Positions 10,827 through 29,889 are shown, counted from the first letter of the stretch. The stretch is DNA of 46,097 bases from Fidelibacterota bacterium (GCA_046861655.1 JBHIAI010000005.1:1-46097); one strand, 5' to 3'. The notes: generated from the sequence alone by a model not told the origin. Numbers and translations: made by a program.

Positions 10827-13058
10827 CTAGCTTATCTTTCCTCTCCGTGGATTCCACGCTTCTAACACCACCCGGTTTTCCCTTACTCCCTTCAGGAAAA
10901 ACTCCCGGTCATGCTCATCCTGAATCCTTTCGGCCCGGGCGGTGATTTCATGGTGGGCCAGTTCCAGGAATCTCCGGGCCGCAAGCTCGTTTCCGAAGGC
11001 AGAATGAAGCAGATACAGATTCCAGTTCACGGTGATGATTTCCCCCTCCCCCGGCTCTTCGAATCTGAGGATCTTGTCCAGACGTTCCATTTTTCGTCTT
11101 GCCGACTCTCTCCTGTCTGACTTCAGCTCTGAAAGAGCCCACCACGAAAGGGTCCACAGCTGTCCTTTGTCATCCTGTAACTCTTCCCAGATAGCACTCG
11201 CACCCTCAAAATGTTGTGAGGACTGGTCGAAACGATCCAGGTGAAAGCTGGCCTGCCCCATCATTTGAAGAGCTATGGCGGCGCCCCGGCTGTCTTTCAC
11301 CTCCTGCTTTATGCCCAAAGCCTTTTCATAAAAAGCGAATGACTTGTCGTACTCCCCTTTGACGTAGTAGGTATTGGCAATATGACTGAGACAGTAGGCC
11401 ACGGAACTTTTTTTCTCCTGCTCCCGGCGGATTTCAAGAGCCCGCTCATGGGCGGAGATGGACCGGTCGAATTCACCTCGCAGCAGGTAGGTATGTCCCA
11501 GGTTGTTCAGGGAAACGGCGATGCCTTCCAGATCGCCCAGCTGCTGCCGGATTGAGAGTGCCTGGCCGTAGCTGTCAAGAGCATTCTTGAATTCGCCCCT
11601 TCCGGCATAGATGATACCCATGTTGTTTAGGGAATTGGCCACCTGTCTGAGGTCGCCTACCTTCCGGTGAAGGTTCACCGCCTGGCGGAAGTGGTCCAGG
11701 GCCTTGTCGGTCTCGCCCTTTTCACGCAACACTTCCCCAATCTTGACCAGGGACGTGCCCAATCCCCATTTGTCCCCCAGTTTTTCGCACTGAAGCAAAC
11801 ACCCCTGGTATACGGACATGGCTGAGTCGAATTGACCTTCCTCAAAGTAGGTCAAGCCCAGATCGATCCTCGCTTTGGGAAGATGGGGATCCAGTTCAAT
11901 GGCTTTCCTAAGGAGTCTTCTGGCTTTCTTCACATCTTCCGGTCCCTGGCGACCTTTGTAGATATACTTACCTCTCAGGTACAGTTCATACACCTCAGCG
12001 TGTTCTGTTGACGGTTTGCCCATGTTTCTTCGAGTTGACACTCCCAGTTCGCTTAGGATACTTTCGGCCAGAGTCCCTGTGATCATGCTGGCCCGGCCCA
12101 CAGGTTCGCTCCACTTCTTGGCAAGAAGACTTTGGCCTGTCTCCGCCTCAATCAGCTGGGTTCTTAGATCGAAGACGTCGTCCATTCGGTGAATGGTGCT
12201 CACCAGAAGATAGGTCACCCCGAGACGCCGGGCGATTTCGTCAAGAGACAAGTCGGTGTCCACAAACCTGACGATTTCATTCAGGGGAGCCACACGGATC
12301 ATTCCCGCGCTGGCCACCTCGATGATGAGGTCCTCGGTGATGCCTCGAGCCCAGAATTCGTCCTCTTTACCTCCTAGATTTTCAAAGCGAAGGACTCCCA
12401 GAGACGGCACGGTTTCTTCCTCGGGATAGAACAGGTATGCCGCGGCCCCCAGAATCACCAGAGCGGGGAGAATCCAGAGAAGCCTTGAAGTGGAACCTCT
12501 TTGAAGTTTCGCCGATACATCCGAGAGTCTGGTCTGGGGGAGGCCATGAGAGACGATGCAAAACACCTTCACTTCCTGTTTTACCCCTTTGAGCTTGGGC
12601 CTCCCCACGTATTTGGTGGCAAATTCTGGACTCCCGGAGATGTCCCGGTGGATCTTGTCGGAGATGGCAATGCCCCCGGGCGCGGCGAAGGGCTCGATCC
12701 GGGAAGCGATGTTCACGTCATCTCCGAACACGTCTGTGTCCTTCACCAGGATGTCACCCTGGTGGACGCCGATACGGAGTCTCAGGCCCTCTATCTCTTT
12801 GACAGCCTCCTGAATGGCTATGGCGCAACTCACTGCCTGCTTGGAACTGGGAAAACTCAGCAGCAGGCCGTCCCCCATCTCTTTCAGCCATCTCCCGTTG
12901 TATTGATGGACGATGGGCTGAAGAACCTCCCTCTGTCTGTCAATGAGGGCCAGGGCCTCTTCTTCGTTTTCCGCGGAAATGGCCGTGAATCCTGCGATAT
13001 CGGTAAACATGATGGCCGCCAGCCGGCGAACCGTTCCCGTTTGATCTAGGTGTTCCAT
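10827..13058 (-). CDS. class III adenylate cyclase with TM helix, TolB-N-like domain and TPR repeats
   Basis: FTDIAGFT, KEMGDG, DVFGDDVNIASR (metal Asp residues, ATP-specifying K/D, N/R); TM LLWILPALVILGAAAYLF; SLNNLG-type TPRs. Confidence 0.92.
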   Translation of the reverse strand: MEHLDQTGTVRRLAAIMFTDIAGFTAISAENEEEALALIDRQREVLQPIVHQYNGRWLKEMGDGLLLSFPSSKQAVSCAIAIQEAVKEIEGLRLRIGVHQGDILVKDTDVFGDDVNIASRIEPFAAPGGIAISDKIHRDISGSPEFATKYVGRPKLKGVKQEVKVFCIVSHGLPQTRLSDVSAKLQRGSTSRLLWILPALVILGAAAYLFYPEEETVPSLGVLRFENLGGKEDEFWARGITEDLIIEVASAGMIRVAPLNEIVRFVDTDLSLDEIARRLGVTYLLVSTIHRMDDVFDLRTQLIEAETGQSLLAKKWSEPVGRASMITGTLAESILSELGVSTRRNMGKPSTEHAEVYELYLRGKYIYKGRQGPEDVKKARRLLRKAIELDPHLPKARIDLGLTYFEEGQFDSAMSVYQGCLLQCEKLGDKWGLGTSLVKIGEVLREKGETDKALDHFRQAVNLHRKVGDLRQVANSLNNMGIIYAGRGEFKNALDSYGQALSIRQQLGDLEGIAVSLNNLGHTYLLRGEFDRSISAHERALEIRREQEKKSSVAYCLSHIANTYYVKGEYDKSFAFYEKALGIKQEVKDSRGAAIALQMMGQASFHLDRFDQSSQHFEGASAIWEELQDDKGQLWTLSWWALSELKSDRRESARRKMERLDKILRFEEPGEGEIITVNWNLYLLHSAFGNELAARRFLELAHHEITARAERIQDEHDREFFLKGVRENRVVLEAWNPRRGKIS

Positions 13059-26407: not shown

Positions 26408-26482
26408 CGGAGCGTGGCGCAGTCCGGTCAGCGCACCTGAATGGGGTTCAGGGGGTCGGGAGTTCGAATCTCCCCGCTCCGA
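26408..26482 (+). tRNA. tRNA-Pro(GGG)
   Basis: Acceptor cggagcg/cgctccg; anticodon arm cctga-atGGGgt-tcagg; GTTCGAATC; CCA not encoded. Confidence 0.95.
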
Positions 26483-26490
26483 CACGATCC

Positions 26491-26599
26491 AAAGATACTT
26501 GACGGGGTAAGGACTGAGTTTGACGAGCGCATCCCGATGTCCATCGGGAGGATCGGGAGTTCGAATCCCGCCGCTCCGACTGGAAATTTAAGTATCTTT
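26491..26599 (+). pseudogene. degenerate tRNA-Pro copy / att-like scar flanked by inverted repeats
   Basis: 26553-26580 matches tRNA 3' end 26456-26483 at 26/28; anticodon arm replaced by tcccgatg-tc-catcggga; flanks aaagatactt (26491-26500) and aagtatcttt (26590-26599). Confidence 0.7.
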
Positions 26600-26738: not shown

Positions 26739-27521
26739 TCAGTAATTCCTGGTTTTCATCGGATATTCTGAGTGTGCTTGTGGACCGAACTGTCCCAATT
26801 GTTTTGAAGACGTACACTTTCGTCGTTGTTTGGCCAACCACTCCCAAAGCTCGGGATCGGCGTAGGCCTTCTTCCAGGCATCGGCGTGACCTGCCTCCGG
26901 ATACACCGTAAACCGGACATTCCCGCCCGCCTCCTCTAACGCATGGACCATTTCCTGGGACTTTTCCAAGTCCACGGTCCTGTCCTTCGCTCCATGGAAG
27001 ACCCACGTGGCAACGTCGCGCATGACGTGGGCCTTGAATGGGTCGCCTCCCCCACAGATGGGGACGGCAGCGGCGAATCTATCAGGATGGGAAGTGACGA
27101 GGTTCCACGTGCCATAACCTCCCATGCTGAGGCCGGTCACGTAGACCCGGTCCGGGTCAACGCGGTGCTGCTCCATAACCTCATCCAGGACCGCCGTGAG
27201 CATGTCCACGTCCCACCACCGGTCGGCCGGACACTGAGGGGTGACCACGACGAAAGGGAAGTCGTGCCCTTCAGAAATCATCCGGGCCGGGCCGTGGATT
27301 TTCACCCGGTCGAGATTGTCCCCGCGCTCTCCAATGCCATGCAGGAAGAGCAGAAGGGCAAACTCCCGTCTTTCGTCTTCGTAGCCGGGGGGGAGATAGA
27401 GAAGATACTGGACCTCCACCGTCTTCTGAATGGTTGTCCGGAGACGATGTGCGGTCTGACGGCCTCCTTTTTCCACCCCCGGTGAAAACCCAGACACCAG
27501 GACCGAGAGTCCCATCCCCAA
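26739..27521 (-). CDS. alpha/beta-hydrolase (carboxylesterase/phospholipase or peptidase-like)
   Basis: FLHGIGERG, GLSMGG nucleophile elbow, HGAKD and GH triad; start uncertain. Confidence 0.9.
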   Translation of the reverse strand: MGMGLSVLVSGFSPGVEKGGRQTAHRLRTTIQKTVEVQYLLYLPPGYEDERREFALLLFLHGIGERGDNLDRVKIHGPARMISEGHDFPFVVVTPQCPADRWWDVDMLTAVLDEVMEQHRVDPDRVYVTGLSMGGYGTWNLVTSHPDRFAAAVPICGGGDPFKAHVMRDVATWVFHGAKDRTVDLEKSQEMVHALEEAGGNVRFTVYPEAGHADAWKKAYADPELWEWLAKQRRKCTSSKQLGQFGPQAHSEYPMKTRNY

Positions 27522-27552: not shown

Positions 27553-29055
27553 TCAGGTCGTCTTCTGCACCACCTGCTGGTAGGACACGTTCAAAACCTT
27601 GGCGATCTTGGTTTTGTTGTGCTGGTAGGTGGTGAGCAGGAAAGAAAAAAGATCCTCCTCGAACTTCCTGTTTGCTTCCCGCCAGGTCAGGGGAACCAGG
27701 GACTCCACATACTGCTCGAAATAAGTGCTATCCACCACGACGGATTTCCTGGCCTCACCCCGCTTCAGGCCCAGTTTCTTCTGGTACAGGAAGTAGGTGC
27801 GGGTGTCGATGTCCAGGTGTCTGCACATCTGGGGGGCGTTTTTCGACCGTTCGAGGTGTAGATTCAAGAGGCTCTTCCGGAAGATATTCCGGATTTCCTT
27901 CATGGTTTTGTCTTTGGCAAACCGGAATACTTCCTTCTGAATATCGGGGCGGGGGAGAGGTTGATTTCTCTCCAGAAACGTCACGTACGACGTCAGGAGC
28001 TTCTCCCTGTACCCCAGAATGGGGAGCCCCATCCGGACTTCCTGGAGCAGCTCCTCGTATCCCAGGGAATAGAAGTGGTCGGCCAGGGCCAGTTCTCCAA
28101 GGTTTTGATGACACAGCCCCAGTTTGTAGTAGTCCTCAAAGGCCATGTCCCTGATTTCATACCGGGTGGTAAGCTGCAGCGATTGACTGTGGTACTTGAT
28201 GGACTCCCTGTAGTCACGATTCTCAAACTCCAGATAGCCAAGGTTCTGGAGGGCCAGACTCATATCGTACGCGGGAAGATCCTCCATCAAAAGGTCCTGG
28301 AACAGATTCCTGGCTTCTTCAATCCTGCCCATGTTGATGAGCAGCCACCCCTTGTCATTGGTGGCGGCAAACTCGTGCTTCGTGAGATTGTGTCTGGTGG
28401 CTAGGTCCATGGCTTCCTCAATGTATTCCATCGCCTTCCCGAATTCCTTCTGGTCGATATTGATCGAACCCATGTGCCTCACCACAGCTCCCAGACGGAC
28501 ATAGTTTTCTGTCTCCTGGTAGTGTCTCCTGCACTTCTCAAGCACCGATAAAGCTGACTCGGGAGACGAGTATTTCTGAGACAGTCCCTTGAGGGTGGTG
28601 ATCCGCCACTTGAGATTATCATGCGTGGCCATCTGTGAGGCCGCGTCGAGAACGGCCAGCGACTCTCTTATGTATCCAAGCTTCCTTAGAAGATTTGAAA
28701 GACTTAAGAAAACATACGCCTTTGAGTCATCCGATAACTCCTCATCAAGGGCCTTGTTGAAAGCCGTTATGGCCTTCCGGTAATTCCCGTTGAACGCATG
28801 AACACCTGCCAGACAGGCCCAGGCAATGCCCCTTTGGTCCGGAGACTTCAATTCGGGAATATGCGCAAGATCATCCAGAGCCCCCTCGGGCGAGACCAGG
28901 TTGAGACCGTAAACCTCCTCAGTCTTCTCCAGGTACTCGTCCGTCTCAATCCTGCCGATCAACTCTTCCTCGGTAGGTACTTCCTTCACCGCAGGAAAGA
29001 GGTTTCTCACGTCGCGAGGAATCACATTCTCAGATCGAATCTGCTGTGATTCCAT
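27553..29055 (-). CDS. TPR-repeat protein with two C-terminal Fis-like HTH modules (putative ligand-sensing regulator)
   Basis: TPRs (WACLAGVHAFNG, ALQNLGYLEF, YYKLGLCH); TMKEIRNIFRKSLL..NAPQMCRHLDIDTRTYF and TWREANRKFEEDLF..NKTKIAKVLNVSYQQV resemble HTH_8; GGAGG SD; no signal or TM. Confidence 0.8.
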   Translation of the reverse strand: MESQQIRSENVIPRDVRNLFPAVKEVPTEEELIGRIETDEYLEKTEEVYGLNLVSPEGALDDLAHIPELKSPDQRGIAWACLAGVHAFNGNYRKAITAFNKALDEELSDDSKAYVFLSLSNLLRKLGYIRESLAVLDAASQMATHDNLKWRITTLKGLSQKYSSPESALSVLEKCRRHYQETENYVRLGAVVRHMGSINIDQKEFGKAMEYIEEAMDLATRHNLTKHEFAATNDKGWLLINMGRIEEARNLFQDLLMEDLPAYDMSLALQNLGYLEFENRDYRESIKYHSQSLQLTTRYEIRDMAFEDYYKLGLCHQNLGELALADHFYSLGYEELLQEVRMGLPILGYREKLLTSYVTFLERNQPLPRPDIQKEVFRFAKDKTMKEIRNIFRKSLLNLHLERSKNAPQMCRHLDIDTRTYFLYQKKLGLKRGEARKSVVVDSTYFEQYVESLVPLTWREANRKFEEDLFSFLLTTYQHNKTKIAKVLNVSYQQVVQKTT

Positions 29056-29356
29056 TACGGTTTCCTCCAGAATTTCACAGGTCTATTCCGTACAATAATT
29101 TCCGAAACGACGTTCTTCATAAACAAGTGCTCATTTCCCGACGAATAACCTCCAGTATCAAACATCTCTTCTGTGAATATCGGGAAGAAGAATATAATCA
29201 TCAAGAATAAATACTCAGCCGTCACCGGTGGTAATCTCCCTTGTAGAACAAAGAAGGTTTTCGTTCATGTGCGCGCACGGAACGTAAGGGTCTACCGGAC
29301 GGTCTAGAACTCCGGCCCGGTGATCCCGGGAAAGGCTTTCAGCGACTTTATCAGGG

Positions 29357-29398
29357 GGTAGTAAGAGTCCCGGTGCTGACCCGGGAACTCAGACTACC
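29357..29398. other. stable hairpin downstream of the peptide gene
   Basis: ggtagt/actacc, gag/ctc and tcccgg/ccggga nested stems. Confidence 0.5.
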
Positions 29399-29445
29399 AC
29401 TTCTCGCTGCTGCCGGACATGGTGGAAGGGTTGTGTTTTATCAGA

Positions 29446-29595
29446 CTACTCGTTCTCATTGGTCCCTGATTCGTTCTCGTTGGTCCCAGATAGGATCCCT
29501 TGAGATGGATCGCTGGAAAGTGGAATCGCGACATCGGTGCATCCAAGAGTCCCGAACAGGAACAGCCCCAAGGTAAGGATGATTCTACCTTTCAT
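29446..29595 (-). CDS. 49-aa exported (lipo)peptide with tandem C-terminal SGTNENE repeat
   Basis: AAGGAGG SD 5 nt before ATG; MKGR + hydrophobic core + TLGC; 21-bp repeat whose 3 differences are all synonymous. Confidence 0.85.
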   Translation of the reverse strand: MKGRIILTLGLFLFGTLGCTDVAIPLSSDPSQGILSGTNENESGTNENE

Positions 29596-29889
29596 GATAC
29601 CCTCCTTTTTTGTTTTGGGATACCAAAAGTTATCTGGAATCGATAAGATAATCAAGAACATAGAACATGAAATCACATACGATAGTATATCTGAACTAAG
29701 AAAAATTCTTAATTTAATCGTCTATTGTACAATTCCCCTGGAATGGCTCGTCTCCGGCTCCGTCGGCCGAAGGCCGGTCAGATTGGCAATCAAACAGAGG
29801 GAAAGAGGGTTGGGTTAGGAAGAGGGCGTCGTCCGTGAGCTACCAGGCCCGGAGGGCCGAGCGGTTGCACACGGGAGGAATCGGTGGCC

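Follow-up and report, generated by a model that had tools for sequence, protein, structure and literature searches.

The 46,097-nucleotide (nt) stretch of DNA analysed here, which we call the window (GCA_046861655.1 JBHIAI010000005.1:1-46097, from a Fidelibacterota bacterium), carries on its minus strand a locus of three genes: a receptor/regulator built of tetratricopeptide repeats (TPRs), a small exported precursor ending in two copies of the heptapeptide SGTNENE, and a micro-open reading frame (micro-ORF) lying between the two. The pairing of receptor and precursor is conserved among relatives, as are the terminal heptad of the precursor and, in a coding-type manner, the micro-ORF. Judging from genome comparisons, the source of all evidence in what follows, the locus probably encodes peptide signalling of the RRNPP kind in a diderm, in which the micro-peptide would act from the cytoplasm as a competing ligand. 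The novelty would lie in this variant of peptide-TPR signalling in a diderm and in the overlooked third gene; their function, including the label "quorum sensing" for the module, we infer from the genomes.

The receptor (27553-29055, minus strand) has 500 amino acids (aa) and consists of N-terminal helices, seven TPRs with a capping helix (residues ~72-364) and tandem helix-turn-helix (HTH) modules of the Fis/NtrC type. An earlier reading made from the sequence alone (the sequence-only reading) had described it as a soluble TPR protein of this length, and indeed no membrane segment was found in it (best 19-residue hydropathy 0.62). The precursor (29446-29595, minus strand) is a lipoprotein-type protein of 49 aa with a signal peptide at residues 1-18, Cys19, a PLSS tether and the two C-terminal heptads, which are encoded by tandem copies at 29470-29490 and 29449-29469 (together 29449-29490, minus strand, 90% identical DNA). 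Its Shine-Dalgarno (SD) sequence AAGGAGG (29601-29607, minus strand) lies 5 nt before the ATG. All parts that the same reading had ascribed to this ORF, namely the 49 aa, the strong SD, the signal- or lipoprotein-like N-terminus and the duplicated heptapeptide (a 21-nt direct repeat), were recovered. The basic N-terminus, the hydrophobic residues 5-18 and Cys19 predict a signal for Sec and signal peptidase II (Sec/SPII), with a lipobox, TLGC, that departs from the lipobox consensus at -3/-2. The receptor was said to lie directly downstream and co-oriented; the orientation holds and the direct adjacency does not, as 390 nt separate the two genes and the gap holds a conserved ORF of eight codons. 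This micro-ORF (MSGSSEKW-stop, 29394-29420, minus strand) is leaderless, starts 25 nt past the precursor stop and is alone in the gap.

Our set comprised 30 automatically collected loci and 40 regions from 171 profile matches, complemented by homologue searches. The window receptor has 79 homologues with identities of 38-81%, and a broad profile, with three candidates scored per genome, detected the family in 91 of 401 sampled Fidelibacterota (Marinimicrobia) genomes, often several times per genome. After partial sequences were dropped we kept 128 near-full-length receptors, and collapsing 16 near-identical ones left 112. The midpoint-rooted FastTree phylogeny separated them into clades I, II and III with 53, 25 and 34 members (support 1.0, 1.0 and 0.74). 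In clade I, which includes the window receptor, a precursor lies near 33 of the 53 receptors (32 recognised by regular expression and one more by inspection of the loci). Eighteen receptors without a partner have a contig end at most 3.4 kb upstream or at most 250 nt downstream, which is where the partner lies in relatives, and two (L017 and L048) are orphans with at least 3.7 kb on both sides. The partner is therefore present at 33 of the 35 assessable loci, two partners being readable only in part, and the small exported ORF that the sequence-only reading had proposed to look for beside homologues is regularly there. It takes three positions: downstream in convergent orientation, directly upstream, or 3.3-4.2 kb upstream past an inserted gene. 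Judged by eye, a lipoprotein of 160-380 aa whose tail is acidic and rich in Gly lies upstream of 19 of the 34 clade III receptors.

The feature common to the clade I partners is the heptad motif SG-x-x-[EQSD]-[NRH]-[GDES], present in 1-10 copies at the precursor end. The S-G is invariant in all 28 aligned tails and the heptad reaches the stop codon in all partners. Position 5 is Glu in 20 and position 6 Asn in 24 of 30 heptads, and 23 of the 30 are distinct, a diversity resembling that of pherotypes. Precursors come as lipoprotein-type minis of 49-105 aa with 1-10 heptads, as Cys-less forms of 52-54 aa, and as folded lipoproteins of 166-195 aa, a long form absent from the sequence-only reading; the 52-aa and the long forms have a single terminal heptad. 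The region from the Cys to the tail shares little among them or is wholly different. In the window genome three of 163 small exported ORFs (signal plus SD, 30-300 aa) end in the motif, each of them directly upstream of one of the three receptor paralogues. As these three loci and their relatives served to define the motif, the real test is its absence from the other 160 ORFs. The tails of the three paralogous pairs, SGTNENE, SGTDQNS and SGFNEN, all differ. A precursor profile matched 16 of the 401 genomes, of which 14 bear receptors; in one more the contig stops 3 kb past the precursor, and the last match is an unrelated 362-aa ORF at threshold. Precursors are essentially confined to receptor-bearing genomes. 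We compared 13 long lipoproteins from clades I and III and found them mutually homologous; no Pfam, NCBIfam or usable Atlas match was obtained for this ~175-aa lipoprotein. The short precursors look like shortened versions of it that share its tail. The simplest reading is that the folded, tailed lipoprotein is older and that the minis would have arisen by loss of the folded part, a direction that presupposes the position of the root.

The micro-ORF, which the sequence-only reading had missed, came to light when the gaps separating precursors from receptors were aligned. It occurs at 14 of 36 precursor loci in 17 copies, three loci having two. The precursor at all 14 is a mini-form that lies upstream of the receptor in the same orientation; 13 carry tandem heptads, and one is truncated by the contig end. 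The window copy has 8 codons and those of relatives 8-11. Its 24-nt core is 74% identical against 33-37% in the flanks, and differences among the 13 distinct copies fall 89/94/340 on the three codon positions, a coding-type pattern of purifying selection on the micro-ORF. Only two of 8695 short ATG ORFs of the genome fit the micro-ORF pattern, and both follow precursors. At the DNA level the pattern was found in 9 of the 401 genomes, with none in the reversed control; ten of the 11 matches come after a precursor, and the remaining one (G248) is start-less and was taken as chance. The encoded peptide, rich in Ser, Gly, Glu and Lys, keeps the S-G and an acidic residue at position 5 and ends in Lys/Arg-Trp instead of Asn-Gly/Asp/Glu. 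Around the receptors inspected in clades II (25) and III (22), no conserved micro-ORF was seen.

Regarding the receptor itself, Pfam recognises generic TPR families (TPR_12, E 3e-14), and HTH_8 scored 15 bits against a cut-off of 22. The AlphaFold model (63 sequences, predicted local distance difference test 90) begins with four short helices, continues with seven helix pairs and their capping helix (72-364) and ends in two HTH modules. Residues 372-500 of the model matched the DNA-binding domain of NtrC4 (4fth) with Z 6.3 and root mean square deviation 2.2 over 60 aligned residues, followed by NtrX and Fis; structural Z values below 8 count as moderate only. The first module (residues ~385-427, 27775-27903, minus strand) was assigned by structural alignment of the model and the second (residues ~458-499, 27559-27684, minus strand) by a match of the family profile, the latter to the TyrR DNA-binding domain (1g2h, E 9e-4) and to NtrC. 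HTH_8 was matched by 30 and HTH_50 by 27 of 91 family members (E at most 0.05), and Foldseek gave no match to the C-terminal domain at E of 0.001 or better. The two Fis-like HTHs reported by the sequence-only reading thus fall below the Pfam cut-off in the window protein and hold at the family level, because of the NtrC4, TyrR and NtrC matches and the HTH_8 hits. Each module resembles the fold of NtrC/TyrR/Fis DNA-binding domains; unlike those proteins, the receptor has two modules per chain, fused to TPRs, and no AAA+ or receiver domain. No HTH family matched the N-terminus.

For the ligand site we used TPR positions 2, 5, 6, 9, 12 and 13, which we take to line the groove, with the register of the AlphaFold model. 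In clade I the groove residues Arg124 (100%), Arg193 (98%), Asp234 (98%), Trp237 (100%), Gln270 (98%), Asn271 (100%) and Glu307 (100%) are nearly fixed, and mean conservation is 0.72 in the groove versus 0.57 at other non-structural positions, in sequences that are kin and not independent. Clades II and III have different residues at these positions. The clade II groove shows the same conservation excess without a known precursor, which weakens the argument from the groove. The modelled pattern fits one polar ligand class per clade, and clade II receptors, with their conserved but different groove, may bind another ligand. SGTNENE is a well-founded candidate ligand because an exported ORF is adjacent in 33 of 35 loci, in three arrangements, and because the groove is conserved. 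Prediction of a complex between receptor residues 10-372 and the last 30 residues of the precursor scored 0.06 against a mark of 0.32, was run without folded controls and counts neither way.

Under the reading that we prefer, the precursor would be exported by Sec and lipidated at Cys19. An envelope protease would free the C-terminal heptad SGTNENE, the repeats raising the number of copies per precursor, and a general peptide transporter would take the heptad back into the producing cell or into its neighbours. Inside, it would bind the concave TPR groove (Arg124, Arg193, Asp234, Trp237, Gln270, Asn271 and Glu307) and switch the tandem Fis-type HTHs and hence transcription, perhaps including that of the precursor's own promoter. 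The micro-ORF would yield a variant heptad, SGSSEKW after removal of Met, which stays in the cytoplasm, competes for the groove and sets the threshold.

Several observations weigh against this signalling reading. The weak links of the mechanism are release and import of the heptad. The lipid anchor hinders release. No binding protein of the Opp/Dpp type (PF00496) and no PTR2 transporter were found in the window's 92.8%-complete assembly; of 30 receptor-bearing genomes, 20, among them that of the sister species, have PF00496 and ten lack it, and the window genome does have OPT and CstA transporter genes. Clustering of neighbours at 67 loci (404 ORFs) revealed no protease or transporter conserved beside the pair across all arrangements. 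A precursor is absent from all 25 clade II receptors and from 15 of the 34 in clade III, so that the family's receptors can function in its absence. The proposal of a quorum-sensing-like module stands as regards the pairing of a TPR receptor with an exported heptad and SGTNENE as candidate ligand, and does not extend to the distant clade of 25 partnerless receptors. As for co-variation of receptor and peptide tail, in the eight loci of the convergent subclade none of the 473 receptor columns separated the three Asn-type from the five Arg/His-type partners, against a mean of 1.7 columns for other splits of three versus five. The TPR region is also no nearer to Rap and NprR than to eukaryotic TPR proteins. 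By structure Rap and NprR rank 30-49 (template modelling score 0.36-0.44 by query), behind LGN and consensus TPRs; by sequence Rap ranks under engineered TPRs, kinesin light chain and OGT. No RRNPP-specific Pfam family was among the top 25 families matched by 63 receptor-family members, and no Rgg/RopB model was listed among the receptor's matches. Finally, the micro-ORF is missing from 22 of the 36 precursor loci (the convergent, 52-aa and long forms and L007), and an SD precedes 12 of its 17 copies, the one in the window lacking it.

An alternative that we consider unlikely, and that nevertheless deserves attention, is a cell-autonomous sensor of the envelope or of export. The receptor would bind the tail of unexported precursor, or a tail clipped in the periplasm, and so report the state of the Sec/lipoprotein pathway or of the envelope, with the micro-peptide as cytoplasmic reference and no neighbour addressed. 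Nothing would have to cross the outer membrane and no dedicated importer would be needed. The apparently folded ~175-aa lipoprotein common to clades I and III, which seems to be the older partner, suits this role, as does the Cys anchor, which 18 of 25 short precursors in the alignment retain; the remaining seven (52-54 aa) have lost the Cys, which does not. Where the precursor is far upstream, its gene is separated from that of the receptor by one for an exported protein of ~930 aa with an HExxH motif and a TolB-like propeller (L006:924-3719 and 15 further loci). Such an envelope neighbour at 16 loci favours the sensor; its homologue in the window genome (G000 C167), however, is on another contig. 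The protein is also a candidate processing peptidase. Up to ten tandem copies and 23 distinct heptads among 30 are better explained by the amplification of a signal and the divergence of pherotypes, as the signalling module would have it.

Another reading accepts a plain two-gene pair and denies the micro-ORF a role as ligand, making it an attenuator-like translated leader, an extension of the precursor by frameshift or readthrough, or a spare repeat in decay. A stem-loop (inverted repeat I3, 29357-29398, minus strand), possibly the transcript end and not conserved in sequence, begins at the micro-ORF stop codon, five of the 17 copies (the window's included) have no SD, and nine are open back to the precursor stop. 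The fold of 29290-29445 is weak (z -1.8, with 9 of 200 shuffles equally good). Relative to the precursor, the copies are spread 7/6/4 over the three frames, a mixture that led us to reject a conserved frameshift product and that speaks against a programmed one; most copies have their own SD, three loci have two copies, and third-position changes dominate. Where the precursor is far upstream, the gene that follows is convergent and there is nothing to attenuate. The micro-peptide is moreover similar to the tails that the convergent subclade exports (SGTSERG, SGTSEHG and SGGSDRG). We regard this reading as improbable. A low-threshold call of tRNA-SeC at 29305-29394 was rejected, as no Rfam match was found there up to E 5. 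DNA contigs of one hydrothermal-vent study cover micro-ORF and precursor and show no structural difference there.

A leader followed by repeated cores is the layout of multi-core precursors of ribosomally synthesised and post-translationally modified peptides (RiPPs). The small ORF could accordingly be a RiPP-type precursor or a low-complexity surface lipoprotein, with the TPR-HTH protein merely its regulator, and the common Asn-Gly ends would agree with that. We disfavour the RiPP reading because no modifying enzyme recurs in the 67 neighbourhoods (404 ORFs, with scans of recurring neighbours). The leader is a Sec/lipoprotein signal, one terminal copy suffices in the 52-aa and long forms, and a structural repeat is not expected to finish exactly at the stop codon in every arrangement, all of which makes either version highly improbable. 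That the neighbourhood is a chance inheritance from one ancestor with no functional link is hardly credible, for although all loci are kin and orphan receptors exist, the tail has been retained through inversion, insertion and loss of the folded domain, and precursors are essentially limited to receptor-bearing genomes.

The comparison with known systems starts from the RRNPP signature, which one source gives as a Sec-exported propeptide of 10-100 aa and a TPR receptor of 250-500 aa in adjacent genes, with a Sec/SPII signal admitted only at the "relaxed" level (PMC10075063). The window precursor has 49 aa (some relatives 105-195 aa), the receptor 500 aa, and the two are adjacent at 390 nt. A second source places the RRNPPA effector domain, an HTH or a three-helix bundle, at the N-terminus, calls multi-copy propeptides common in AimR, NprR, Rap and PlcR systems, and reports the genes in Firmicutes after a search of 13,513 complete genomes (PMC9765709); Phr duplication is treated in PMC5199041. 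As in the RRNPPA systems of Bacillota (NprR-NprX, PlcR-PapR, Rap-Phr and AimR-AimP), a cytoplasmic TPR protein of at most 500 aa stands next to an exported propeptide of 10-100 aa whose last 5-8 residues keep a common pattern but vary in detail, with multi-copy propeptides and orphan receptors. A lone single-domain receiver (~125-147 aa, e.g. L009:4126-4506) directly follows 16 of 45 clade I receptors, which recalls Rap/NprR-Spo0F; it is absent from the window locus. For a Rap-like phosphatase role, no residue cleanly splits the 16 receiver-followed from the 29 other receptors, and no conserved Rap-type Gln tracks the receiver. Unlike RRNPPA, the module sits in a diderm host of the Fibrobacterota-Chlorobiota-Bacteroidota group, its HTHs are C-terminal, in tandem and of the Fis/NtrC type, and its precursor is mostly a lipoprotein, related to a folded one of ~175 aa. 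The only homology seen is that of generic TPRs, and the module was not found in viral contigs (no viral relative among 291 candidates). By analogy, it would work like RRNPP, a likeness that need not mean membership.

For the exported heptad versus the micro-peptide, the model is PrgX with cCF10 and iCF10 (Enterococcus faecalis pCF10), of which cCF10 derives from a lipoprotein signal peptide. In the module, unlike that system, both peptides are encoded in the receptor locus and both are polar, not hydrophobic; one comes from a lipoprotein C-terminus and the second is wholly leaderless. Two heptapeptides with opposite effects on one receptor domain are described for PrgX in PMC5552905. Leaderless communication peptides (LCPs), according to PMC10518010, come from an ultrasmall ORF of 8-10 aa beside the receptor and act as mature peptides on the cytoplasmic TPR-like regulator RopB. 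The 8-codon ORF beside a TPR regulator is like the RopB-SIP/LCP pair; LCPs, however, are hydrophobic, secreted and the sole signal, whereas the micro-peptide is polar/charged and stands beside an exported paralogous signal.

Cytoplasmic TPR receptors with encoded peptide signals are described for Bacillota (PMC10075063, PMC9765709). Our literature search found no description of such a module in Gram-negative bacteria or Fidelibacterota, most subscription papers and supplements being outside its scope. If the module works in a diderm marine phylum, peptide signalling would no longer stop at the boundary between Gram-positive and Gram-negative bacteria, and one would have to ask by what route a peptide passes two membranes. 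An evolutionary series also seems to be preserved in the family, from folded tailed lipoprotein to mini-precursor, multi-copy precursor and leaderless micro-gene, and three paralogous pairs in one genome would make a built-in specificity matrix. A further, tentative and rather doubtful step would be to see here independently evolved signalling in Gram-negative marine bacteria, in which a multi-copy signal is exported from a lipoprotein tail and the receptor reads the ratio of exported heptad to leaderless variant, so separating the signal of neighbours from the cell's own output.

Upstream of the precursor lies an AT-rich region (29652-29715, minus strand) with the box AAATTAAGAATT... and a TTCTTGA -35-like element, a candidate promoter/operator. 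This box pair occurs twice in the genome, ahead of both short precursors, from which the pattern itself was derived. A search for operator motifs returned a palindromic AT-rich motif scoring 61.7 versus 26-32 in three crude shuffles, a result confounded by kinship and by the -35 element. The GC content is 31% in the 145 nt upstream of the precursor, 51% in the precursor ORF and 47-48% in the gap, compared with 55.6% in the genome. The AT-rich intergenic DNA of the sequence-only reading is therefore confined to those 145 nt and includes neither the ORF nor the gap.

Clade II receptors are mostly followed by a co-oriented secreted protein of 350-1700 aa, often with overlapping stop and start (e.g. 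L122:6260-7708, L102:6641-7735, L104:6292-7533 and L077:3036-4103); a dockerin-like C-terminal domain was present in all four scanned. In one family (L097-L100 and L121) two receptor paralogues stand back to back ~1.2 kb apart, with one ~175-aa lipoprotein between them, upstream of one receptor, and the other partnerless. The subgroup with 52-aa precursors has an additional divergent hybrid histidine kinase upstream. In L032/L164 the receptor is split into two frames and the convergent precursor is intact, ending SGGSEHG. Other TPR proteins of the genome (window 10827-12203, minus strand, and G000 C87) match the family profile in their TPR part only and were not counted as receptors. The ESM Atlas contains several clusters of TPR proteins of 470-580 aa (score 0.93-0.96), some with HTH_8 in 80-97% of members and commonest in Acidobacteriota, which may be a parallel family.

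Downstream of the window receptor, at a distance of 32 nt, lies a co-oriented gene for an exported alpha/beta hydrolase (26739-27521, minus strand; Peptidase_S9, E 9e-17), which does not recur beside other receptors. Beyond it, a degenerate tRNA-like stretch (26501-26582) follows tRNA-Pro (26408-26483) and repeats its 3' end in the manner of an integration site. In one related contig the 3' end of tRNA-Pro is joined almost directly to the 3' end of the receptor gene.

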